This document shows positions 12,424 to 37,338 of a DNA stretch of 64,000 bases, one piece after another. The position numbers and the translations under genes are program-made. Source of the stretch: Heptranchias perlo (taxonomy: Eukaryota); the NCBI RefSeq assembly GCF_035084215.1, contig NC_090347.1, positions 7,192,001-7,256,000 on the forward strand, in the 5' to 3' direction. Position 1 is the first letter of the stretch; every line of letters begins with the position of its first letter. Under the pieces are notes generated by a model. It did no database searches and was not told where the DNA came from. It saw only the letters and a program-made list of their open reading frames with translations.

Positions 12424-14291
12424 TTGGAGCAGGCCAAAGGCAAGGCTGCTCCAAGGTTCTCTGACTCCTCGCTCCAGGTGCTACTCGATGGGGTGAGGAG
12501 TAGGAGGGAAATTTTTTTCCCATCGGATGGGAGGAAGTGTCCTCCCTCCACCACCAAGAAGGCCTGGCTGGAGGTGGCCGAGGAGGTCACCAACAGTGGC
12601 AATGTGTCCAGAACCTGGGTCCAGTGCAGGAAGAGATTTAATGACCTAACCAGGTCAGCCAAAGTGAGTATACTTACGCATTCTCCCACACTCTGTCTTC
12701 CACATCACCCCAACCACCACACAACCCCTTCTGCACTGCCACCACAACGCTCTCGCATCACTCCTCACATCCACTCAACTATCATCCTCACCTTGCCCGC
12801 ACGTACTCACCGCCCCAGTTCCCATTCGAACACTACCACGCAACCCAATCCTCATACAATCTCATGGCTATGTCTCACACACACCCTCCCATGCATCTCC
12901 CTCACGGTCACCCCCCACCTACACCAATGCATGCAGCGGATCACCATGCAACCATCACTCAATCACGCCTCTTTTTTGCCTTGATAGGAGAAGAGATGCC
13001 AGAATGCCCGGGAGAGGGCAAGGACCAGGTGGCATTAACAGATGCGGAGCACCAGGCACTCGAGATAAGCTGCACGCTGGAGTGCCTGTCCATGACGGAC
13101 GCCGAGACTGGGAGCGCACAAGCGGCTGGTGACAGAAATCTAACACTCAGCATTCATGATAGTGAATGATCTTAGCATCACTTGGCATATACAGCACCTC
13201 AACATCTGTCCACATGCTTAATATTGCTTTCTGTTCTCTTGCAGGGCCATCTGCAACCGCCGTGACTGTGGAGGGCGATTCCTCAGAGGACCTGCCGTCC
13301 TCTGGGGGTCCATCGTCACATCTGAGCCAGCCATCCACCAGCGCAGATACACACACCTTGGTCACTTAGTTGGGCTTGCACATGGTGAGTCACCACGCAC
13401 ATGTGAGCACAAGCAGACCCTGGTGGCACGGGCAGCCGTGGAGAGTCCGCGTCGGTGGGAGCATTCTTCTCCAGGCTCTGCTCAGCTGGACCCAGATGCT
13501 GAACCCTAGGGGCCAGCCGTGAAAAGGAGAGTCATCGAGGGGCAGCAGCACGTTGCTGAGGTACTGGAACAGTTGCCACGCGCACTCTCCACAATCACGC
13601 AGAGGATGGAGGAGTCCAACTCCTGCATGGAGGGCAATTAGGGATGGGCAATAAATGCTGGCCTCGCCAGCGACGCCCGCATCCCGTGAACGAATATAAA
13701 AAGAAAGAATACTGTCACAGGGATGTGAAGGCATCTCTGAGATAGTGTCGCGGGTAGGTGCGGGAATGTCTGCGTGGAGGAAAGGCTAGCCTCCATCGAG
13801 CGTCAAGCACAGCTCAACAATGAGACCATTCAGGCCCTGACAACGGCCGTTCGGATTCAGGGTGAGCAACATTCTGCCGCCTTAAACAGGCTGACAGATA
13901 CCTTACAACTGGCCTTCCAAGGCTTCACGCATGTCCTCCAAACTGTCGTCCAGCAGGGTGGAAGGAGTGATGTGGGCCTGGGCCAGGAGAGGGATGATGG
14001 TGAAAGAGGACATGGAAGTGGGGACGCCACTCAAAGCGCTCCCACGTCTCACCCGTTGCCCCCCTCTCAACCAGTACCTGCAATGCTGCCCCCACTCCAG
14101 GTGGCCATGGTCTGCCCCTGCACAGGTGCAGGTGGAGCAGTCTTTGGAGGGGCCCTCACAGGCACCGAAACCCAGAGGGCGTCCGCGCAAAGCATCTCAT
14201 CGGTCAGGGCATGGACAAGAGCAACCTGCCACTACCTCTGCTGAAGCCACCACCTAAGGGTTCCCGTAAACGTAAGGCGAAGGATTTGTGA
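12424..14291 (+). pseudogene. Harbinger Myb/SANT-like (NAIF1/MSANTD-type) DNA-binding protein, disrupted
   Basis: Exon 1 12424-12663 (PRFSDSSLQVLLDGV...KKAWLEVAEEV...RTWVQCRKRFNDL|gtgagt), exon 2 12988-13128, exon 3 from 13245 to a basic C-terminus RKRKAKDL*. Start codon is TTG; frameshifts and a LINE-tail insertion at ~13632-13706. TATTTAAA at 12367. Confidence 0.8.
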
Positions 14292-17042: not shown

Positions 17043-17411
17043 AAACGCAAAATACAGCTGATGCTGAAAATCTGAAATAAGAACAGAAAATGCTGGAAAT
17101 ACTCAGCAAGTCAGGCAACATCTGTGGAGAAAGAAACAGAGTTAATGGGGGTGATTTTAAACCCCAAGAACGGGTGGGTTGGGGGCGAGTGGGAGTTGAA
17201 AATAGTTGTTTTTTGGGCCGTGACCACAACCCGGCTTTATTTCCGGGTTTAACGTCGGCGTGTAAAAGTACAGGCTTCCCACTGGGAATACAAAGTCAGA
17301 ACATTTTGCAGTTGCGACGCAAAAAAACAACTGTTTTCAACTCCCACCCGCCCCCAACCCCACCCCCGTTCTTGGGGTTTAGAATTACCCCCAATGTTTC
17401 AGATCGATGAC
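17043..17411 (-). mobile_element. Penelope-like family B terminal fragment interrupted by a MITE
   Basis: aacagaaaatgctggaaatactcagcaagtcaggcaacatctgtggaga...gttAAT[MITE]AATgtttcagatcgatgac, same family as 18506 and 25281. Confidence 0.7.
17147..17392. mobile_element. Harbinger/Tourist-type MITE, 246 bp
   Basis: ~85-bp imperfect TIRs starting GGGGGTGATTTTAAACCCCAAGAACGGG. Exact 3-bp TSD AAT at 17144-17146 and 17393-17395. Confidence 0.9.
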
Positions 17412-17912
17412 TGTTTGCCATTACTGAACTATAAATCCATTTGGTATTTTTCTGGCCGTTTGATCTGGGCAAGGTCCTTTTATTTCTCACAAAATGTTAT
17501 TTTTTTTTACAGTCAAGTACTCTTTTTCTTTTTCTATTCTTACACTGAACCTAATTATATTCTGGTCAGGATTTCCCAACTTTTAGGTTTCCTGCTTGCT
17601 CTGCTTCATTATCCATAACAAGGTCAAGTTATGCTGCCTTGTTGTAGTAATAGCATTGTAACCAAGAAAACAGTTCGAAACACATAGCAAAAAAAACCTT
17701 CCTCTTTTTCACCACAAATACTTCTCCTATTCAAGCCTATTTTGGATAATTAAAATCTCCTACAATTAAAACTATATTGTTAACACTCTAATTTGTCTGC
17801 AAATACCATTACCTTTTCCTCTATCCCTGTGCCTCCTGAAAGTTTTATACCTAGGAATATTTAATTGATAATTCTGACCCAGCTGGAGCCACATTTCAGT
17901 TGTTACTATTTC

Positions 17913-18100
17913 ATGATGTGGAGATGCCGGTGATGGACTGGGGTGGACAATTGTAAGGACTTGCACAGGCATTGTTCTCTAACGATATATGCTATGCATT
18001 TTCAGACCCCTTCACTCACCTGACGAAGGAGGTAAGCTCCGAAAGCTTGCGATTTAAAATAAAACTGTTGGACTATAACCTGGTGTTGTGCAAGTCCTTA
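17913..18100. mobile_element. Short Penelope-like family A insertion, partly inverted, with hammerhead on + (18016-18052)
   Basis: 15-bp direct repeat TTACTATTTCATGAT at 17903-17917 and 18098-18112. Motif tcacCTGACGAaGGAGgtaagCTCCGAAAgcttgcga. Confidence 0.8.
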
Positions 18101-18505
18101 CTATTTCATGATTTTCTATTTTAATCAATGACTTTAGTTCCTCAATTTTGTTTCTTGTACTCTGTGCATTAATAAACATAGGTTTTTAATGAATTCCTTT
18201 GGCTTGGCAAATTTTCCTTTTTGCCATCTCCCATCCTGATTTCTTTTTACTATTGTCTCCTGTTTAACCACTTTCAACCTTTCAGCATCTAAAGATTACT
18301 TTCCCTTCCAAGTTGCATATTCTACTCTCTTGCTTTTCCTTTCACCCGCCATATTAGTTCAAATACTATGGCACAACTCTGGTTTACACTGAGTTTTGTT
18401 CTGGGGGAGGCTGCCCTTCAGTATATCTCACTCCTGCCCCACAATTGTAATTATGCAAATGAAAATACAGTAACTCTCATGAAAAAAAATCCTAAACCGA
18501 TAGTA

Positions 18506-19331
18506 CAAAAGCAAAATATTGTGGATGCTGGAAATCTGAAATAAAAACAGAAAATTCTGGAAAACGCTCAGCTGGTCAGGCAGCATCTGTTAAGAGAGAA
18601 ACAGAGTTAACGTTTCAGGTCGATGACCATTCATCAGAACTGGAAGATGTTAGAGATTAACAGTTTTTAAGCAATTACAGAGCCAGGGAAAAGTGGGAGT
18701 GCAGGTGGGGGGGTGGGGAGAACAAAGGGGAAAATGTCTGTGATAGGATGGAGGGCAGGAGTGATTAAATGATAAAAGGAATGGTGGTGTAAGGCAAAAG
18801 GGGGTGGTAATGGGACAAGTATAGAAACAAAAAATGGGTCCAGAGGAGGTGCAAATGGTTACAGCATGGGAAATCTGGCAAAGAGGAGAAGGTTCCCGTG
18901 GCAAGGGAAAGTGACCCAGGGGTGCAGATCACCCAGACGGCCGTGTATTGATAGGGGATCCCCACTCCAAGCATCGGCCCACAACTTCTCCACACTCACA
19001 GACCTTCCCCTTTGTTCTTTCCTCACGATGTGGAGATGCCGGTGATGGACTGGGGTTGACAATTGTAAACAATTTTACAACACCAAGTTATAGTCCAGCA
19101 ATTTTATTTTAAATTCACAAGCTTTCGGAGGCTTCCTCCTTCGTCAGGTGAACGATGTGAAACGATTATAACTTGGTGTTGTAAAATTGATTTCTTTCCT
19201 CACCGCACACCGCACACCCACCTTTCCCTGGCTCTGTACTTGCTTAAAACCTGTTAAACCTGAAACGCGAACTCTTGTTTCTCCCTCCGCAGATGCTGCC
19301 TAACCTGCTGAGTGTTTTCCAGCATTTTCTG
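18506..19331. mobile_element. Penelope-like family B element with inverted partial duplicate
   Basis: 18540-18700 is mirrored imperfectly by 19217-19331. Hammerhead core on the minus strand at 18605-18641. Confidence 0.7.
19027..19191 (-). mobile_element. Short Penelope-like family A insertion with hammerhead on - (19115-19151)
   Basis: 12-bp TSD TTCTTTCCTCAC (19015-19026, 19192-19203). 23-bp inverted segment 19167-19189 mirrors 19070-19092. Confidence 0.8.
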
Positions 19332-23300: not shown

Positions 23301-26300
23301 AATTTGACATACACACTTAATTGCAAATGTATACAACTAAATTACAAGTGTTATCTTTAATAGGGGACAAAACTAAATGGACATTAAAACATTACTACTT
23401 AATTAGCTTTGAATACTTACAAGATCAACTTTGTTTCAAATTTGTCTGGAGCATGACCTAGCTATTTGTTTCAGGTGATGGATCACACTACAGAGACTTG
23501 GTTATCAAGTGTGGAGCTATTGACCCATTACTGGCATTATTGGCTGTTCCTGAATTATCAGCATTATCGGTGAGTTTTGTCTTTGTCATAGTGGGCTTGC
23601 TATTTAAACTTAATGCTAACAATTAAATGGCTAAGCTGTCTCTGGTGTCATGGTAACATTGTTATTTGCTGCTCCTAAATTTGGAGCATAACTTAATGTA
23701 ATAAACTGGACACTTTTGTAAATTTAGCCTATTTTGCAATCAGAAGGTTTGCTTGGCCCATAAAATGGGTTCACTAATGTCTTGCATTTGTTGCTAGATG
23801 TAGTAGTAACCTAGTGTTACATTTTAAATATGAACAAGTTTTCACAAAAGGTAGCATTGAGTTGGTGCTTTGTCCAACATTTTTTATTTCTCATTCCAGT
23901 CCAGCTATCTGAGAAACGTAACTTGGACATTGTCAAATCTCTGCCGTAACAAGAGCCCATCTCCACCAATAGAAGCAATAAAGCAGATTCTGCCAACCCT
24001 TGTACGCCTTCTGCACCATGATGACAAAGAAGTTCTTGCAGATGCATGCTGGGCTATCTCTTATCTAACAGATGGTTCCAATGACCGCATTGATGTGGTG
24101 GTGTATACTGGGGTTGTGCCACGCTTGGTGCAGCTGCTGGCATCATGTGAAATCACTATACTGGTAAGTGCAATTTTAAAGGAGAATCTTAACTGTACAG
24201 TGCTGTGCCAACCATCACTTAATGACAAAATTCATAGCAAATGGATATTCAGAGGTGTTGATAAAATGTAATCAGTATGCTGGATGGTTGCAGTGAATTG
24301 TTGGGTGAATCAGTGGAGATCTGTGCTTATTGAAGGGCTACAATTCTAAGTGCTTTATTTGAGAACAGACCACTTGAGCAGCACTTGCATCATTTCTTTA
24401 ACCTGTTTCAATTGTGGAAGTTGCTGAGTGTTGCTTGGACTTGGATACAGCCAAAGTTCAACCTCAAACATTACCTTTTTTGCTGGAGTGCAATTGACAA
24501 GAGCATGAACTGAGTTTCAGCATTCCTCAGCCAAATGAGATATGAACAGGCCAGTGGCAAGTAACTCTTGGGCTGTATTGAGTACCAGTAGCTTGTCGCG
24601 GTGTTGCATAGCTGCTTGTGGTAATTCAGTGGGCATCTCTCCCAGATGACCTTGCTGCTAATTTGCCAAGTTTAAAGGATGCCTTACTGATGGTGACAAC
24701 ATTTCCAAAGTCTATACTTTCCTACTTGGAAATTGGCAGTCATTGTAAAAGCCAGTCTAGCTGAATATAAAACTGCACCAGGTGACTTGCATCAATGAAC
24801 TGCCAAATCAAAAGTGTCAATGTTGATGTTTTAATTGTAAACTTGTTAACTAACAATTGTGCAGTCAAGTTAAGTCATGGACTCTCCAGCAATCTTATGA
24901 ATGCAGACAGGAAAAAACCTTCTGGTCTATCCACCCTGTCTCCCCCAATGTGATGTCATCAATATCCACTCCCCGCCCATAAGCCATGTAATTTCCTGGG
25001 AGGCTAAAAACCCAGGCCAATTTGGGGAGAGGAAGGAAATTCCCCTCCAACCCCTTGGGAGATCACTCTGGCCCTGATTTCTATGCATTACCTACCCTTT
25101 TCTTGTAAGAGCTGATCTCTGCCCCAGCCAGAAACAGGTCCAGCTCCTGCTTGAAGGAAATTCAGCAAATCAGCATCCACTGGATGAGCTGGCGGCCTGT
25201 TCCAGGCATCCACTATTCTCTGGGAAAAGAACCACCTCCTGAAATCTAACCTAGATCTGGCTTTATAAAACTTAAATTATAAAATAAAAACAGAAAATGC
25301 TGGAGAAGCTCAGCAAGTCAGGCAGCACCTGTGGAGAAAGGAAGTTAACATTTCAGGTCAAAGACCTTTCATCAGAATTGGAAGATATTACAGGGATTGT
25401 TAAAATTGTGACCCCATGTCCTCACTAACTTATTGGAACAAATTGTCAACTAGAACACAATCTGTCCCTGAATCTTAAACTTTGATCAGATCACCCCATA
25501 TTCTACACTTTAAAGTGTAAAGTCCCAGCTTGTTTAGCCTATCTTGATAACTTAAGATGCTTTAAATTGGAAATTTGTCTAGTGGCCCTCCTCTGCACAC
25601 ATTCCAAAACCTCTATCACCCACCATGAGACCACCAAAACTGGACAGTGTTCCAACTGAGGCCTGACCAAGTCTTGTACAAGGACAAAGTATTTTGTCTT
25701 TGTCAGTTGCCATATAAATGCATCACAACACCCTATTTTCTTTAGCTATTGCTTCACTACACTAATCAAACCTTTGGAGATCTGTGCACTACACCAGATC
25801 TTTATTTCTCCACCTGCTTTAATGTTTTTCCTGAAGGTTGTCTGTTAAGCATTTGCCTTGCCCACATGGATAACACTGCACTGCTTCAAATTAAACATTT
25901 GCCAGCCATGAACCCAATTCACCTGAAGCAGATTAACATTATCTACAGTCCTAACATGCACACAGATCTTGGTATCATTTGCCGATTGTCCCCAAACACC
26001 TACACTTAGATCATTAATAAAAATAGTGAAGAGCAACAGTCCTGACACTGATCCCTGTGGGACACTGCTGGTGACCAGTCACCAAACTGATCCAATCTAT
26101 CTAACTACTTTCTGCCTACAGCCTTCCAGCCAGTTCACAATTCAGCTCAATACAGTACCACTTGTACCAGAGGCTTAAATCTTGTAGCGAAGCCTCTTGT
26201 GTGGTACCCTGTCAAGCTTTTGGGAAGTCCAAGTGGACATTGTCTACTGGGCTTCCCTCATCCATCATCTTGGTGACTTCTTCAAAAAAATAATCAAATG

Positions 26301-29300
26301 TGCCCATTAAATGGAAACTCTTCTACTGAATGGGTCTTGGGACTGCAGACATATGTATAATTGGTAGTTAGATATCTATTGATTCTTTGTCCTGGAGGTA
26401 AATGAATAATTTGGTGTTGGGAGAGGCTGGTGCTTGGATATATTTAGCCAGTTCTTGGGCTGCAGCCTTCATAAGAGAATTGTTGAGTCAGGATAGTCAT
26501 GTACTGATTCACTTATTCGTGCAAATGTTTTTCCAGATCTCTAAACCAATCCTCTGTTTCAGACTCCTGGGCTCAGGGCAGTGGGCAATATAGTGACTGG
26601 TACCGATGACCAGACACAGATAGTCATTGACTCAGGTGTGCTGAACTATTTTAGTGCTCTGCTTGTCCACCCAAAGACCAATATCCAAAAGGAAGCTGCC
26701 TGGACAATCTCAAACATTACAGCTGGGAAGCCAGAACAAATCCAAGCAGTTATTGACAATGGACTAGTTCCACACCTTGTTCAATTGCTTAGAAAGGTGA
26801 GTAATGTAAATTATCTGTAGTCTTGGCTAATGTAGTCAGTCTAAAATTAACTGGGCTGGAAACTAATCTCCAGCATTACAGAAGTGATTGCTTAAATCAA
26901 TATAGTAAACATCCTGACATAGTAACAATTATTTCAGGCAGGAGAGGGTCCCTCCAGCTGCCCAACCCTTGCATCATTAAACTTGAATAGCAAGGAATTT
27001 TCAGATTTTTCCACAAAATATTCTTCATTAGTGACATCAGTTACTCCCTTAAATGGACATTGTGATCCCTAGGATCCAAAGTGCACATTTTCTCCTGAAT
27101 TTAGTTGACTCAGGGATTGAGAATGCTTACTTACTGAAATAATGTATCATATGAATTGTTCTCTACAGGAGACAAAAGCACTTTACTGAAATGCAGCAGT
27201 GTCAGAATAATTACAACAATACAGGAATGAACAGTATACAGCTCTGGTACAACCAATTTCCCTATGCCCCTGGTTATGAAAACTATTTTCTCAACATGGG
27301 ATCACCTTTTCTAGATAAGCCCCTGAAACAAACTAGTTCAGATTTTGAACATGTACAGTTTCTTGTAAAATCAGATTGCTCTGCCTCTCTGAATTTCCAT
27401 CTAAAGTCTGTGTGGACAAATGATTTAATAACCATCAGCCTTGATCCAGACATTTTGGCAAGAACTGAATGCTAGGAGTAGTGTTTAGTGAGTATTCCAT
27501 TATGCTCCTCATTTGAACCTTGAAGGGTCAAGAACCTGGTTGTCAGGCCAGTCTTTGCTGTTCCAGGACATCACTGCATCCTCAACAGTAGCCTTGTCCC
27601 AAGCATCTTTAGCTGCTTTCATCAATGATCTTCCCTCTGTCATATTAGGTGCAGGGCTGTTTGACAATTCTACAGCTCATTCAGAAAGCCTTGAATGAAG
27701 ACAGGGTGGTTGGGGCTGTGCATGTCAGCCTATAGCAGGACCTAGATGTCATCCAGGCTTGGTCTGACAAATGGCAGGTAATGTGCTTAAGTGTTGAGCA
27801 GCCCAACCCCCAGTGGCACCAATGAACTCTCCCACCATCAACATCCTGGGTTACCACTGATGAGCTGCTTAACTGGACCAGCTATTGTCAGCAGTGGATC
27901 AATGGGAGTGCCCTCTTCTCTACAAGGTTGAGTTCCAGCCTCGCTCCAGAGACTTGGGCATGTAATCTAGGCTGACACTTCAGTGCCTTATGAGATGTTG
28001 AGTCCCTGTCGCCAAACTGTTCCCCCCCACCACCCCTGCTTAACCAGGACTCTTGTGTATCTACAAGATGCACTGCCTTACTGTATTATACAGCATTTCT
28101 ATTAACTTGTGTAACTTATTCACAACTTTTATTTCACAGGGTGACTTTAAATCCCAGAAAGAGGCTGTCTGGGCTGTGACTAACTACACCAGTGGTGGAA
28201 CAATTCCACAAATCATCTATCTTGTTCAGACTGGAGTTGTTGAGCCATTAGTGGCCCTGTTAGCAGTCAAAGACTGCAAGACCATCCAAGTCATTCTAGA
28301 TGCTATTACTAATATCTTCCTGGTAAGGGCAACTGTTTAATACAATAGCATGTTAATACTATAACACAGCCACTAGGTGGGACTGTATGAGTGGAGTCCA
28401 ATGTGCCTAACCACAGGCAATTTTTCATCTGTAATTCTCAATGAATTCCCTGTGCTTTACATTATCTTGGGTACCTCAGTCAGATGTGGAGTAGTATGGA
28501 GACCCAGGAACTGGCCTCTTGTAACTCCCTAGCAGGTGAAATTGAGAAGCTACAATACCAAATGTAAAGCTGGAATTGGTGATCTTAGAGCACTGGTTGT
28601 TGTGATCATGTAAAATTCCTATGGTACTTTTTAAGTTGCTGTTTTTGGATAAGGACTTTGTTGAATAGCATATTAGCTAGTGTGCTAAAAGGGCTTAATG
28701 GATCTCAATTTGTACAAATTTAATTGATTTAGTACATTTAAACATCAGTGCTGTGCAAGCTGGCTGCATCCTAGTTATTGAACTAATAACTTAAGATGTA
28801 ATTTCAAACTAACGCACAAGTTTTTTCCTGATGTGCAAGATGGTTACAAGTGTAAGGAAAACTTTAGTCTGCTGCAGTGACATGAATACTGTAAATCAGC
28901 TTGATCTTATCAATACACTGCATGGGAAGTCTTGCAAACTAATGAAGTAGTAAGCTTCACTGGTATCTTTAAATTGTAGTTATAACTGGTTAGTGGTGCT
29001 TTTAAGAGGCTAAAATTTCAGATGTGAAATTTAGTTGGAATATATGCTCCATTACATAACTAAGCAATAGGGGGCAATGAACTAGAGAACTGCTCATCTA
29101 GTTGGACCAGGTGGCAAAATTGGATTCAAATTCAGCAATTTGAAGAATGAGCACCCCCCAAAAACTAGAAGGAATGATCAGCCAACCTCATAATTTGCAA
29201 CCTTTTGGAAAGGCTGCAGTGCTAAAGCTGAGCCAGTGTTCATACTGGACAGGCAGTCAGTTTGTACCTCAACCTAATTTTCAGATTGCTGTATTTGTTT

Positions 29301-30244
29301 ACTCCAGACTGCAGAAAAAGTTGATGAAACAGATAAGCTTTGTCTAATGATAGAAGAATGTGGTGGGCTTGACAAGATTGAAGCTCTGCAGTCCCATGAA
29401 AATGAATCTGTGTACAAAGCTTCCCTGAACCTGATTGAGAAATACTTCTCAGAAGAGGTAAGTTAAAGTACTTGAGATGTGGGGGCTGGTTTTAATGCAC
29501 TGTCTATTGGCCTTATTGGTGAATTGCAATCCTAATTTAACCTATTGAAAATTCAGCTTGAGTGGTGAAGGAATTAAACTAATTTACCAAATGTGACGGT
29601 GTTGCTGCTGATACTGAGCATGGGACACAGTGTTGGTTTTCTTCCTGTTCTGAGCTGCACCAAGCTGGGAATCAGGACACTAGTGGCCATACATGATAAA
29701 GGACAACTACATTAGTCCTACTTGAATGGTAACTTTCCTCAGCAGCTGACTAATGCAGGTATTGGAGATATGGCACAAACCATCCACAATCACAGCAGAA
29801 GCATAAATCTGAGTGGAATGAGGTTGGAACAAATTAGCAATGAAAACTAATCCAGATCAAGTGGGCCTTTCACTTGAGGTTTGACCAGCTTGCAATGTCT
29901 GTTGCCATTGCATGCATCAGTGGCTCGTGAAATGCAGTATTTGTAACTTGGCCTGTTCCTGGATACCAGAACAAGTATTTGTTTCACATGCTGGATTTTG
30001 ATTTAAGCTGCAATAAGATGTGAAGAGGCAGCTTCAATATAAAATTGGGCTCTTGCATGTAACTGTAGTGGTGTCTCAATCAAGCTTTCTATAAAAGTTA
30101 AACTTGGCTTCAAGTTAATCCATTGCATGAGCTCTAAATTTATTTCTCTCATAGGTGGAGGAAGACCAGAATGTTGTACCAGATGCCACAGAAGATGCTT
30201 TTACATTTCAGACTGAGAGCCCTGCTGTAACCTTTGACTTTTGA
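20288..30244 (+). CDS. KPNA2: Importin subunit alpha-1 (karyopherin alpha 2), complete spliced CDS, 525 aa
   Basis: join(20288-20359,20445-20582,20680-20762,22371-22639,23475-23569,23900-24163,26563-26796,28140-28322,29308-29457,30155-30244) = 1578 nt, all GT-AG and in frame. IBB domain [31 protein letters not shown] repeats, C-terminus VTFDF*. Confidence 0.97.
20445..20582 (+). CDS. KPNA2: KPNA2 coding exon 2 (IBB domain)
   Basis: aaag|[18 protein letters not shown]...EKNNTQ|gtaccg. Confidence 0.95.
20680..20762 (+). CDS. KPNA2: KPNA2 coding exon 3
   Basis: tttag|[27 protein letters not shown](R)|gtaag. Confidence 0.92.
22371..22639 (+). CDS. KPNA2: KPNA2 coding exon 4
   Basis: [12 protein letters not shown]...[18 protein letters not shown]...[11 protein letters not shown]|gtaac. 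Confidence 0.95.
23475..23569 (+). CDS. KPNA2: KPNA2 coding exon 5
   Basis: [32 protein letters not shown]|gtgagt. Confidence 0.95.
23900..24163 (+). CDS. KPNA2: KPNA2 coding exon 6
   Basis: [18 protein letters not shown]...[13 protein letters not shown]...CEITIL|gtaagt. Confidence 0.95.
24890..26290 (-). mobile_element. Degenerate CR1 in KPNA2 intron, with a Penelope-like family B fragment at ~25281-25390
   Basis: Remnants [19 protein letters not shown]. The family B fragment carries a hammerhead-like core on - at 25343-25379. Confidence 0.7.
26563..26796 (+). CDS. KPNA2: KPNA2 coding exon 7
   Basis: [19 protein letters not shown]...[13 protein letters not shown]...LLRK|gtgagt. Confidence 0.95.
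28140..28322 (+). CDS. KPNA2: KPNA2 coding exon 8
   Basis: [20 protein letters not shown]...[10 protein letters not shown]|gtaagg. Confidence 0.95.
29308..29457 (+). CDS. KPNA2: KPNA2 coding exon 9
   Basis: [50 protein letters not shown]|gtaagt. Confidence 0.95.
30155..30244 (+). CDS. KPNA2: KPNA2 coding exon 10 (terminal)
   Basis: atag|[29 protein letters not shown]. Confidence 0.93.
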   Translation: MEEDQNVVPDATEDAFTFQTESPAVTFDF

Positions 30245-30527
30245 ATGACCATTTCCTAACATCAGTGTTGGCCATGTTTTTGTTTCCTGTTTAGTGACTT
30301 TTCCTATCTTCTGGCTGTCAAACTTAGTCTAGCACCTGGCACTTAAAACATCTGACTCTTCCATGTACATTTGTATAAAACTTATTCACTGCCTGTCTGT
30401 AAACTTTTGTAATTACATTTTGATAGAATGTAAATACTTTTAAGAACAGTCTTAATATCTAACTATTTTGCCATCTTTGGTTTGGGTGTATTAGGACACC
30501 TTGTTGAAACATTTGCCTTTGGTTTCA

Positions 30528-33960: not shown

Positions 33961-35261
33961 TGACATACACCTCTAGGCGAGAGAGGGGAAATAAATCAGA
34001 CAATGATCATGATTGTTATCCAGGGACCTTCGCTGGAAAATTAATGTATTTGGATGTTGGGCGATGGCCATCAGCCTCCGATTGCTGGTCAGATTTCTAA
34101 AGTTAGAGCTGATGGGGTAGTCAGCTGTTTTCATTTTTAAAATGAAAAGCAGTGAAGTCGGATGCTTGAGGTTTTTATTATTCTCAGGAATGTAACCATA
34201 AAAGATCAGAGCTGATAGGAGTGAACTATAAGGGAACAATGTTCAGGGAGAACACGTTTAGCCTAGGCTTTTGTTAGTTTCCAGCATTCCCAAAGTCTGT
34301 TCCTTTTATTTCAACACAAAGCTTGGGCTGCTTGATACTGGTGGCAAGTTGGAAAAGCTGAAATCTTGTGATTTTCTTTCTGTGAACCTGATGTAAACGA
34401 TTTGCCTTTAGGTACAATGGTCATGACTTTGAAACTGTGTTGTGTGAACCAGGGTTCCTATTATCTTTAGAGTTTAAACTCAATTGCATTACGATTTAAT
34501 CTAGAAATAAGGCTGTTCAGTCAATCTAATATTGCAACTGTCAAATTACAATTTTTTTCTTCCTCTTTGAATGCTTCAACTGAATTCACATTCAGTGGCA
34601 GCCTATTCCCTAAATTAGCTTAATTTTAAGTTGTTGACCATTGTTTAGCTTGGTGTTCTCCAGTCCTTCTCCCTTGGTTCAAAATAAAGGACCTCTCAAT
34701 TTGCTTCAATTTCACAGTTTTAAAAATAATATTCACTGTCCATAGCATTTTCATGGCTCATGATCTGGTCATTTTGTTTACACTTTCAGGCTATTGCTGC
34801 TACTACGTATTTAAAGCTATTGTCACTAATGGAAAATGATTTTACAATCTTTGATTTCACTGAGGAGGGTTATTAAGAAGCGAGGTACCACACTGGCATT
34901 TGGCATGAGTATATGGCGCACGTTATCAAATTATTGTCTAAGCTGTTCTTATAATTTCACCAAATTAAGAGGTGTCTCTGCATTCAAAACCTCATGTCAC
35001 TTAGATGCCAAATGGATCCCAAGAAAAGTCAACTCTATGGGATTGAGATGTTGAATTCCTCATAGTCAAACCGCATTGTTTGTTCTCTTCCTATCAATTG
35101 AGAGACCATCATCCCCAGTAGAATCAGAACATGCTTCATGGTGTTCTGGCCAACACTGATCCCTCAACCAACACTTCCAAAAACTGATTAACTGGCCATT
35201 TATCTCATTGCTGTTTGTGGAACTTGCTGTGTGCAAATTGGGAGCTATGTTTGTTTACATT

Positions 35262-35499
35262 ATTGTAAACAATTTTACAACACCAAGTTATAGTCCAGCA
35301 ATTTTATTTTAGATTCACAAGCTTTCGGAGGCTACCTCCTTCCTCAGGTGAACGATGTGGAAATCCACATCGTTCACCTGAGGAAGGAGGTAGCCTCCGA
35401 AAGCTTGTGAATCTAAAATAAAATTGCTGGACTATAACTTGGTGTTGTAAAATTGTTTACAATTGTCAACCCCAGTCCATCACCGGCATCTCCACATCA
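35262..35499 (+). mobile_element. Penelope-like family A fold-back insertion: perfect palindrome 35262-35463 plus 3' tail
   Basis: Two 100-bp perfectly complementary arms around a 2-nt spacer (35362-35363). 12-bp direct repeat TGTTTACATTAT at 35252-35263 and 35500-35511. Inserted in a DeuSINE (~35140-35600). Confidence 0.9.
35374..35410 (+). ncRNA. Minimal type-I hammerhead ribozyme motif (mirror copy on - at 35315-35351)
   Basis: UCAC-CUGAGGA-A-GGAGG uag CCUCC-GAA-AGCU-U-GUGA: helix I UCAC/GUGA, intact core, 5-bp helix II, palindromic AGCU helix III, CUU cleavage triplet. Confidence 0.75.
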
Positions 35500-35686
35500 T
35501 GTTTACATTATAACAGTGACAATACTCCCAAAAGTATTTCATTGATGGTGAAGCACCTTGGGACAACCTGAGGACACAAAAGGCACTGTGTAAATGGGAG
35601 TCCTCACCTTTACTGGAGGAGTGGGCATAAGGTAAGTTACCTTTCATTAAGATAGGGGATATCTAATGACTGTTCTATTTTCAGTT

Positions 35687-35901
35687 ATGATGTGGAGATG
35701 CCAGTGATGGACTGGGGTTGACAAATGTAAGGAATCTTACGACACCAGGTTATAGTCCAACTGTTTTATTTGAAAATCACAAGCTTTCGGAGGCTTTCTC
35801 CTTCGTCACACTCACCTGACGAAGGAGAAAGCCTCCGAAAGCTTGTGATTTTCAAATAAAACAGTTGGACTATAACCTGATGTCGTAAGATTCCTTACAT
35901 T
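35687..35901 (-). mobile_element. Penelope-like family A fold-back insertion
   Basis: 86-bp arms 35723-35808 / 35817-35902 with one mismatch and an 8-nt spacer. 11-bp TSD TATTTTCAGTT (35676-35686, 35902-35912). Confidence 0.9.
35812..35848 (+). ncRNA. Minimal type-I hammerhead ribozyme motif
   Basis: UCAC-CUGACGA-A-GGAG aaagc CUCC-GAA-AGCU-U-GUGA. Confidence 0.75.
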
Positions 35902-37338
35902 TATTTTCAGTTGATCAAGTGTTTTTGTTTTGATCTTGATGCTAAGGTGTATATATAGAATTTAGTAGAATCCTTATTCTGTACATCTCCTGTCATGGGC
36001 ACCAATGTTATGTAGTATATTGTCTGTTATTTCATTTCCCTCTTTGTAATGTGGGGCTGGGGATGTTTTTTCCCTCGTTAATTATTTTTTTCGTCACTCT
36101 TTTCTCTACCATTACCATTCTTCTACTTCGAGCAGCATATTGAGCCAAAACATGTCTGTGATTCTGTAACAAAAGCTACTCAGCTAACATATTAAAAATT
36201 ACTTTTTTTAGTGAAATATAAATTTCCTTTACAGGACACCTCATGTACATGCACACGCACACTCGAAGGCATTTCCTTGAAAGATAAATAAGGTACCTAC
36301 CAGATTTGGTTTGAAAAGGCTGAAGAAATAGTGCAAAAGATGAACTTCAAGAGCAGCTGGTTGGCATCATGCATGATTGGGTATAAAATCCATCAGTAAT
36401 GTTCACATTTCTTACAATGGATGGAAATTTGCACTTACCAATGTTTGATTCCATCATTTGCTAATAGATTGTCAGATTTCATTGCCAATCCTGTCACATA
36501 ACTGGCTTTTAAAAAGCTACTCTGCTTACTTTTTTCAACAGACCCTCTTCTAAGCTTTTTCAAACCTGAATCCTTGGAAGTAATTGCAGATATAGAATGC
36601 TCCCATCATTTGATCCTGTCACATTACAAAAATGAAGATGAAATGCAGTAATGTTTCTTGCACCTTCCTATTATAACTTTCCCACTTGCCCCAGTTTTCT
36701 CCCCTCTTCTCCTCAAGGCATTTATTCCTGATAAATGACATTTTTAAAGATGCATTTATATTCATTTTTAACATTGTGTCCTGCGTGTTTCATTTCTGTA
36801 AATGAATAGAGTTACTTAATTCGGAATCTGACGCTAGCTCGAGTGTGGCATATTGATACTGTCCTCAAAAGTGGCTTGGAGAGACATTAAAGTGCAGTGG
36901 GCGCCAGCAATCTAGAGGGTGAGGTCTCTGTAGGCGTATAAAACCACAAGGCTGCAGCCCCTGGTTCATAGTAGAACACGAGAGCTACTTGCAGGAGGTG
37001 TGAGCGGACTGTTCCACAGGAGAAGGGGTCTAAAACCCTAAGATTACATTGTATTGATGGCAGCAAATTGTAAGAGACACTGTACTTTCACTCATTTTAA
37101 AGTGGTGCTATCAACAATTCCTCTCTGGTCAGCTCTACGGAGCTTGCCTTCAGCTCCATCAGGTACTATTTAGATTCAGTGTGTTCTGAAATGGCTGGGT
37201 CCTTCAGCCATTACGTTCCCCAAATGTAGTCTGATACTGCAAGCCAAATGTCTTGCGAAGATCAGTTGACTGTTTTTAGAGAGTCTTCCAGGGTGTATAT
37301 ATACATTCAGGTAAATTTACTAATTCATTCCCTACAGC

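Follow-up and report, generated by a model that had tools for sequence, protein, structure and literature searches.

Introduction

Insertions of Penelope-like elements (PLEs) are known to carry short tails and inverted copies of their own ends. The Penelope tail measures 30-40 bp (PMC8557442), a 34-bp repeat has been described in D. virilis Penelope (PMC2377424), and in rotifers a 31-bp tail occurs together with an inverted pLTR and target-site duplications of 8-10 bp (PMC3846280). For the formation of the inverted ends, self-priming has been proposed (PMC3846280), and priming of both strands from two sites has been shown in vitro (PMC11167929). In the latter study the Poseidon protein PAc cleaves and extends both DNA strands from two RNA sites that bound the tail, favours AT-rich DNA, and does not require ribozyme cleavage; that article does not address how inverted copies form.

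PLEs also contribute a class of small ribozymes. The published consensus of metazoan minimal hammerheads includes a bulged base and a G-C palindrome, and motif pairs lying 100-700 bp from each other on opposite strands have already been ascribed to truncated PLEs (PMC4209133). Cleavage of minimal hammerheads as dimers was reported by Lunse et al. 2017 (via the review PMC6765202). Non-LTR retrozymes are present in the one chondrichthyan sampled in a recent preprint (10.64898/2026.07.22.740005), and we found no shark entry in the searchable part of the PMC4209133 supplement. Our literature search, in which subscription journals were thinly covered, found no demonstration that two PLE cDNAs are joined, and nothing on shark PLE mini-palindromes or on PLE twin priming.

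Here we examine a 64,000-nt stretch of the shark Heptranchias perlo (the window), in which a sequence-only reading had picked out two neighbouring palindromic insertions with hammerhead motifs. We conclude that a very abundant Penelope-like retrotransposon most likely left these mini-hairpins as stumps, in the already described pattern of an inverted copy plus a tail. The insertions are real but largely ordinary, and the structures as such are already known.

Two adjacent insertions with one-sided tails

Insertion 1 (35264-35499, 236 nt) lies between identical 12-mers at 35252-35263 and 35500-35511, and insertion 2 (35687-35901, 215 nt), whose tail is on the minus strand, lies between identical 11-mers at 35676-35686 and 35902-35912, which bears out the target duplications of 12 and 11 bp that had been read from the sequence. 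The arm pairings also hold as first described: 35262-35361 pairs with 35364-35463 with 0 mismatches in 100 around a 2-nt spacer (the left arm's outermost 2 bp belong to the target duplication), and 35723-35808 pairs with 35817-35902 with 1 mismatch in 86 around an 8-nt spacer that is itself part of the inverted arm. Because the two insertions are separated by a gap of 187 nt and are only 87% identical, we agree that they were separate events.

The tail-bearing arm of insertion 1 occupies 35364-35499 on the plus strand (136 nt), and its last 36 nt (35464-35499) form a tail that has no counterpart in the inverted arm, which, with the 2-nt centre, spans 35264-35363 on the minus strand. In insertion 2 the tail-bearing arm is on the minus strand (35687-35808, 122 nt), again with a 36-nt tail (35687-35722), and the inverted, tail-less arm, including the 8-nt spacer, is on the plus strand (35809-35901). 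The description of the insertions as almost pure hairpins must therefore be amended, since each has 36 unpaired nucleotides at one end. This tail on one arm only, which had been overlooked, is the most diagnostic feature of the family. A fold point within about 11 nt upstream of the ribozyme does not hold for insertion 2, which folds inside the ribozyme, its tail-bearing arm beginning at U4. In insertion 1 the distances from the arm starts down to C3 of the hammerhead core are 14 and 16 nt.

Two further copies and the features shared by all four

A third family copy (17903-18112, minus strand) is flanked by a 15-nt duplication (17903-17917 and 18098-18112) that is partly shared with the element ends. 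Its tail arm (17913-17967) measures just 55 nt, of which 40 nt are tail, and lacks the ribozyme; its inverted arm (17968-18101) is 134 nt long and contains a hammerhead with C3 at 18020 and one helix-I mismatch. This inverted arm also carries branch-point-like (17979) and acceptor-like (18005) motifs, located 41 and 15 nt before C3, that might point to the intron retained upstream of the hammerhead in endonuclease-positive (EN+) PLEs; they were seen in this copy only, in a stretch that is single-copy in the window. The fourth copy (19015-19203, minus strand), between 12-bp duplications at 19015-19026 and 19192-19203, is built the other way: its tail arm (19027-19159) is identical to insertion 1 at 130 of 133 positions and ends in a 43-nt tail, and its inverted arm (19164-19191) amounts to only about 26-28 nt.

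All four window copies consist of what is most likely a 5'-truncated pLTR with a head-to-head inverted copy, flanked by duplications of 12, 11, 15 and 12 bp. The A+T fraction of the duplications is 0.83, 0.82 and 0.80 in three copies and 0.58 in the remaining one, against about 0.58 for the window. The tail is restricted to one arm in every case (36 nt in insertions 1 and 2, 43 nt at 19.0 kb and 40 nt at 17.9 kb), so that the inverted arm always ends 36-43 nt before the 3' end. The pattern is common to at least three diverged lineages, and within a copy both arms carry the same subfamily variants throughout and are 99-100% identical.

The 5' ends of the arms are much less uniform. The eight arms begin anywhere from -52 to +67 relative to C3, with five of the eight between -16 and +1. 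None of the eight begins at the predicted ribozyme cut (+29), which gives no support to a role for ribozyme cleavage. The inverted arm extends upstream beyond the tail arm by about 120 nt at 17.9 kb and by 8 nt in insertion 2; thus in two copies, and probably in a third, the tail-less arm holds element sequence that is absent from the tail-bearing arm.

A conserved minimal hammerhead motif

In insertion 1 a minimal type-I hammerhead motif occupies 35372-35412 on the plus strand, as judged by a descriptor match and by the consensus in Fig. S3 of PMC4209133. It comprises a 6-bp helix I, a core starting from C3 at 35378, a bulged A, a helix II of 4-5 bp and a palindromic AGCU, and the ribozyme is predicted to cut after 35406. 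The motif is indeed present on both strands of this insertion (C3 at 35378, plus, and 35347, minus). The claim of a hammerhead in each insertion stands in part: the motif occurs in both, but in insertion 2 the whole core is found only on the inverted arm (35812-35848, plus, C3 at 35816), the tail-bearing arm starting at U4 and lacking C3 and the 5' strand of helix I.

The full minimal-hammerhead descriptor has four matches in the window, all within this family, whereas 30 shuffles gave 0.1 on average; the motif core is present in all four insertions and the full descriptor is satisfied by three. None of the 11 core positions varies among the four motifs. Across three lineages, the expected conservation was apparent: no column of the core, helix II and helix III is variable (0/21), compared with 23 of 68 other columns (Fisher p=0.0007), and the core taken alone gives 0/11 versus 23/78 (p=0.03). 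Among only four sequences, none of the 10 pairs of helices I and II has changed on both sides, and 94.9% of cells are paired.

A search against Rfam found no hammerhead family that reached its gathering score anywhere in the window, and none at E<=10 in 35200-35960, where there were only hairpin look-alikes; our ribozyme call therefore rests on the descriptor and the published consensus. Rfam matches to miRNA precursors were rejected, being below gathering scores and reflecting the palindrome. By computed folding the whole hairpin is more stable than the ribozyme fold by 68 and 54 kcal/mol in the two insertions, and the model predicts that a read-through transcript would bury the ribozyme, whose own complement comes before it, so that these copies would be passengers rather than working ribozymes. 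Cofolding of two ribozyme copies yielded no model of an active dimer.

Origin of the insertions

We consider it likely that the insertions are 5'-truncated ends of a Penelope-like retrotransposon, and that they arose when the element's protein primed reverse transcription on each strand of the target, using two positions on the RNA some 36-43 nt from each other. The sequence-only reading had already taken them for pseudo-LTR ends of Penelope-like elements, with inverted copies and a minimal hammerhead of the dimer type; the published tail and consensus support this, and of the two origins first offered, extreme truncation is the better. The observations to be explained are an AT-rich target in three of four copies, duplications of 11-15 bp, and one arm with a tail while the other ends 36-43 nt earlier. 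By analogy with the anole Poseidon, a GIY-YIG/RT protein, predicted to be a dimer in that element, would make staggered nicks on both strands. Uncleaved element RNA would then serve as template for extending both target 3' ends, starting at the far edge of the tail for one and at the near edge for the other. Neither cDNA would be completed: each would stop at a position of its own, in many cases near the ribozyme's 5' half, and joining and filling in of the two 3' ends would give a palindrome whose centre belongs to the longer cDNA. Fold junctions also vary among many other loci of the sample (best 15 of 346 joints).

Two-strand priming is transferred here from a lizard element studied in vitro. 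Five of the eight arm starts crowd into -16 to +1 and one junction reaches about 50 times single-copy depth, a concentration beyond what wholly random truncation would lead one to expect. The 43-nt tail of one copy slightly exceeds the published range of 30-40 bp, and the duplications of 11-15 bp are longer than the 8-10 bp of rotifers (PMC3846280). No parent element carrying RT and GIY-YIG emerged from the searches made here: 13 chosen window ORFs contain no GIY-YIG domain, and remnants may lie elsewhere in the window. A protein search with an open frame of 46 aa that crosses the 17.9-kb arm returned 21 candidates, none at E<=0.01; because this frame has stops in insertions 1 and 2, we take it as chance. 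Patterns with long flanks recovered no relatives in metagenome contigs, viral contigs or prokaryote genomes, as expected for an animal repeat.

A more specific form of this origin is possible, but we hold it tentatively: the mini-elements may, instead of being randomly truncated, be programmed run-off products, in which the PLE protein would start at the tail sites, the RNA 5' end would lie just upstream of the ribozyme, 100-150 nt would be copied on both target strands, and the cDNAs would be joined. The template of such a run-off might, with similar hesitancy, be either a transcript 5' end or a dedicated short non-autonomous RNA. If the run-off reading is true, the thousands of junctions in the genome would directly document two-strand priming in vivo and decide how the inverted repeats of Penelope arise.

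The second arm could instead have arisen by self-priming fold-back (or from an antisense template) in an element of the same Penelope origin, with asymmetric centres due to later deletions. We regard this as unlikely. It accounts for the shared subfamily variants and near-identity of the arms; palindromes at inverted junctions were argued as its basis in rotifer Penelopes (PMC3846280); and the 19.0-kb copy, with its long tail arm and short inverted arm, suits snap-back equally well. However, a self-folded cDNA cannot yield a second arm with sequence absent from the first, so snap-back next to the ribozyme, as first proposed, fits poorly as a general mechanism where the tail-less arm is the longer (134 versus 55 nt at 17.9 kb; the 8-nt spacer of insertion 2). 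A tail arm could be shortened by later deletion at the palindrome centre, but some 120 nt would have to be lost at 17.9 kb and at least 8 nt in insertion 2. Self-priming alone also leaves the stop 36-43 nt before the tail end, seen in all four copies, unexplained, whereas two start sites explain it.

A dedicated non-autonomous family, retrozyme-like or based on a run-off RNA of about 130-150 nt and mobilised in trans by a PLE protein, seems to us quite improbable. Consistent with it are the very high summed depth of the family (overcounted), the start of three arms from two independent insertions at -12 to -16, and the position of 22 of 30 listed joint ends at -18 to +8, a hand count biased by the window's own arms. 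In the -12 to -16 subfamily, moreover, the tail end recurs in the 6-8 nt that precede helix I, as it would at a head-to-tail junction. Yet retrozymes are defined by tandem units (preprint 10.64898/2026.07.22.740005), and none of the four window copies is a head-to-tail tandem; the spread of arm starts from -52 to +67 and the recurrence of the pattern in at least three diverged lineages also count against the retrozyme-like option. The best 15 of 346 joints include no tail-to-head joint, a weak argument in the same direction.

That the palindromes are artefacts of assembly or of library fold-back is very improbable. We checked the junctions against contigs assembled from a single sample's DNA run, which may be that of the source sample, considering 32 listed pieces of 76036. 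One contig matches 35479-35710 with 0 differences and spans both tail junctions, and another (35864-36100) spans the outer junction of the inverted arm of insertion 2, so that three of four outer junctions are bridged, at single-copy depth. Neither fold centre appears among these 32 pieces, nor does insertion 1's left junction, and all runs come from one sample, which leaves some room for an artefact. On the other side, exact duplications flank all four copies (among 20000 random position pairs, 11 have a repeat of at least 11 nt at both ends), one mismatch separates the two arms of insertion 2, and excision of insertion 1 restores an older repeat that aligns over about 210 nt with four other window copies. 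The summed contig depth of the family is about 1-2.8 million versus about 15 in unique flanks, an overcounted figure that is not a copy number. Two runs guessed to be RNA contain family contigs that are uninformative on these loci; one joint there starts at 35845, the predicted cut, and as one of 30 listed ends it was not taken as evidence.

A MITE or DNA fold-back transposon was rejected, as one terminus is an unpaired tail of 36-43 nt and arm lengths vary between copies.

Tiny, young, high-copy insertions with both junctions readable amount to a natural experiment on where arms stop and which arm owns the centre, and the four window copies favour two independent primings. If transcribed, the hairpins are predicted sources of long double-stranded RNA, and short-read assemblies would be expected to mishandle them.

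Comparison with known systems

The copies resemble EN+ PLE insertions (Arkhipova et al. 2013, PMC3846280; Craig et al. 2021, PMC8557442; D. virilis Penelope, PMC2377424) in the head-to-head inverted copy at the 5' end, the 30-40-nt extension on one arm, the short target duplication, the strong 5' truncation and, in one copy here, a splice-acceptor-like sequence just upstream of the hammerhead. They differ in that the whole insertion measures 190-240 nt and holds no ORF sequence, and in duplications of 11-15 rather than 8-10 bp. The predicted ribozyme matches the minimal type-I hammerheads of metazoan PLEs (Cervera and de la Pena 2014, PMC4209133) in its CUGAnGA core, the bulged base before G10.1, the G10.1-C11.1 pair, GAAA-N-N-U-H, the palindromic 15.2/16.2, the U-rich and AU-rich flanks and the lack of a stable helix III; its helix II is short, at 4-5 bp.

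Non-LTR retrozymes (Li et al., preprint 10.64898/2026.07.22.740005) are likewise non-coding, PLE-derived and equipped with a type-I hammerhead. They form head-to-tail tandems with a ribozyme per unit, whereas the elements here are scattered insertions, each single and head-to-head, and their 5' ends vary. In Poseidon PAc of Anolis carolinensis (Frangieh et al. 2024, PMC11167929), as here, the tail is bounded by two inferred start sites with the hammerhead upstream of both, targets are AT-rich, and insertion proceeds (in our case presumably) from uncleaved RNA. The PAc ORF starts at stem II. Here an ATG stands at the tail end, and the frame that runs up to it is broken in both insertions 1 and 2.

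Structure of the insertions and further family members

Identical 12-mers flank insertion 1 (35264-35499) and identical 11-mers flank insertion 2 (35687-35901), which has the opposite orientation; this confirms the target-site duplications claimed in the sequence-only reading. The claimed arms were likewise recovered: 100 bp with no mismatches around a 2-nt centre in insertion 1, and 86 bp with one mismatch around an 8-nt centre in insertion 2. The two hairpins are 87% alike. As a chance control, 20000 random position pairs were examined, and 11 of them had a repeat of at least 11 nt at both ends. In-silico removal of insertion 1 restored an older repeat, with an alignment of about 180-215 nt to four other loci in the window. 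For the assembly check, four of seven listed runs were used. Among the 32 of 76036 contig pieces listed, contigs from one sample's DNA run, which may be that of the source sample, spanned the tail junction of each insertion and insertion 2's outer junction with 0 differences; those 32 pieces included neither fold centre, nor insertion 1's left junction.

The surroundings are those of a spliced, repeat-rich animal genome. The insertions lie downstream of an importin-alpha gene, identified by Arm repeats and importin-alpha matches, whose exons span 23861-30250; the distance from its last exon, near 30.2 kb, is about 5 kb. The window also holds a tRNA gene (8248-8320) and, on the minus strand, a 315-aa ORF (3737-4684) that has no Pfam match and may be an exon of the neighbouring gene.

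We found two additional family members. The 19.0-kb copy (19015-19203) has a tail arm (the arm ending in an unpaired tail) of 133 nt, 130 of them identical to insertion 1, and an inverted arm of only about 28 nt; the 17.9-kb copy (17903-18112) has a tail arm of 55 nt without the ribozyme and an inverted arm of 134 nt with the ribozyme motif, 15 nt being common to the two arms. In all four copies the inverted arm ends before the element's 3' end, by 36 nt in insertions 1 and 2, 43 nt at 19.0 kb and 40 nt at 17.9 kb. The family is highly abundant in the sample reads: its summed depth was about 1-2.8 million over the arms, compared with about 15 in unique flanks, an overcounted figure that is not a copy number. 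The four insertions form two close pairs, separated by 903 nt (17903-19203) and 187 nt (35252-35912). Uniform placement would give such pairing with a probability of about 0.0009, calculated post hoc; the pairing agrees with a preference for sites close to existing copies (PMC6765202, in part) or with local hot spots.

A second repeat family occupies 17064-17410, 18539-18760, 19258-19331 and 25282-25393, and two or more of its copies (25375 and about 18637, minus strand) carry a hammerhead-like core in which CUGAUGA...GAAA precedes a self-complementary stretch; the family is probably another Penelope-like element (PLE) end. The 19.0-kb copy is inserted within a copy of this family, the empty site matching 18548-18743, and the locus would be one PLE-type element nested in another. 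A further second-family copy is interrupted at 17147-17394 by a MITE-like element of about 248 bp whose inverted ends are G5/C5, flanked on each side by AAT; it is possibly tied to a Myb/SANT-domain ORF at 12274-12984 that we take to be Harbinger-type.

The hammerhead motif

A minimal type-I hammerhead descriptor matched four times in the window, always in this family, with a mean of 0.1 in 30 shuffles; Rfam returned no hammerhead match for the window at gathering score or for 35200-35960 at E<=10. Across three diverged lineages, none of the 21 columns in the core and helices II/III varies, versus 23 of the 68 others (p=0.0007), and this column conservation points to selection on the motif in the source elements. 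No compensatory changes occur among the four motif sequences. Insertion 1 does carry the motif on both strands, as had been noted. In insertion 2 the whole motif is present only on the inverted arm and the tail arm begins at U4, so the fold point placed about 11 nt upstream of the ribozyme in both insertions is wrong for that arm. Insertions 1 and 2 are predicted not to cleave in place, for two reasons: transcription through insertion 1, whichever way it runs, makes the antisense copy ahead of the ribozyme, and imposing the ribozyme fold carries a penalty of 68 kcal/mol for insertion 1 and 54 for insertion 2, compared with 1.6 and 6.6 for the two asymmetric copies.

Formation of the inverted insertions

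The anole Poseidon protein, working from uncleaved RNA, cleaves and extends both target strands; it favours AT-rich DNA and initiates at two RNA sites bounding the tail (PMC11167929, in part; Frangieh et al. 2024). By analogy, we infer that one target strand would be primed at the far tail edge and the other at the near edge, each cDNA halting at its own position before the two ends are joined. This two-strand priming is the most likely route by which these insertions formed: it would account for the constant tail and variable centre, and for a centre owned by the tail-less arm in both the 17.9-kb copy and insertion 2; the 2-nt centre of insertion 1 probably also belongs to that arm. In the literature covered, no paper dealt with shark mini-palindromes and none traced PLE inversions to two-strand priming; both may be described in subscription papers and in some supplements outside that coverage.

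Self-priming, in which the first cDNA folds back and copies itself and asymmetric centres arise by later deletion, is favoured by PMC3846280 (in part) and fits the 19.0-kb copy. However, a folded-back cDNA's second arm cannot hold what the first lacks, and in both insertion 2 and the 17.9-kb copy the tail-less arm does hold sequence absent from the tail arm; unless deletions followed, this contradicts the snap-back synthesis proposed earlier, and we regard self-priming as unlikely.

Relative to C3 of the hammerhead core, arms start at -14 and -16 (insertion 1), +1 and -7 (insertion 2), -12 to -16 and +52 (19.0-kb copy), and +67 and -52 (17.9-kb copy); five of the eight fall within -16 to +1, and none at the predicted cut (+29). 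Fold junctions in the sample reads are numerous and varied (15 of 346 joints listed, depths 21-800), one at about 50 times single-copy depth. By hand count, 22 of 30 listed joint ends fall in the interval from -18 to +8, a count biased because the window's own arms end there and only best-supported joints are listed. One fold-back joint (35845), from a run guessed to be RNA, starts at the predicted cut, which as one of 30 listed ends could be chance. The clustered arm starts, deep junction and joint ends speak against plain random truncation; stalling at the ribozyme, or RNA that begins shortly before it, would account for the clustering. In D. virilis Penelope a start site and intron lie a short way upstream of the equivalent region (PMC2377424, in part). 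That the mini-elements are programmed run-off products of an RNA whose 5' end lies shortly before the ribozyme is a tentative reading, to which we give a limited chance.

Still less probable, and in our view quite doubtful, is a tandem-derived non-autonomous unit (retrozyme-like or a short run-off RNA family). Its best remaining hint is that, within the insertion-1 subfamily, the end of the tail recurs in the 6-8 nt preceding helix I (35364-35371, 19152-19163), as if at an old tail-to-head junction. Retrozymes as defined in preprint 10.64898/2026.07.22.740005 consist of tandem units, whereas none of the four copies is tandem, so the earlier suggestion of a retrozyme-like family falls outside that definition.

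Relation to Penelope-like elements

Pattern scans of metagenome contigs, viral contigs and prokaryote genomes gave no match to relatives or a parent, and a protein search for a parent ORF, the remaining defining feature of such insertions, with the 46-aa frame of the 17.9-kb arm gave none at E<=0.01. At 17968-18005, directly upstream of its ribozyme motif, the 17.9-kb copy has branch-point-like and splice-acceptor-like motifs, which at most suggest a possible retained intron end, by analogy with D. virilis Penelope, whose intron ends at the corresponding place (PMC4209133, in part). In the same source, opposite-strand minimal hammerhead pairs 100-700 bp apart were ascribed to truncated PLEs, and its metazoan PLE consensus agrees with the family motif in the core, the bulged base before helix II, G10.1-C11.1 and the palindromic pair after GAAA, without a stable helix III. 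Endonuclease-bearing PLE insertions usually consist of an inverted, 5'-truncated pseudo-LTR with a 30-40-bp tail at one end and a short duplication (PMC8557442, PMC3846280 and PMC2377424, each in part). The inverted arm, one-end tail and short duplication are shared by the insertions here, and by their sequence the four copies would represent this already known, textbook form.
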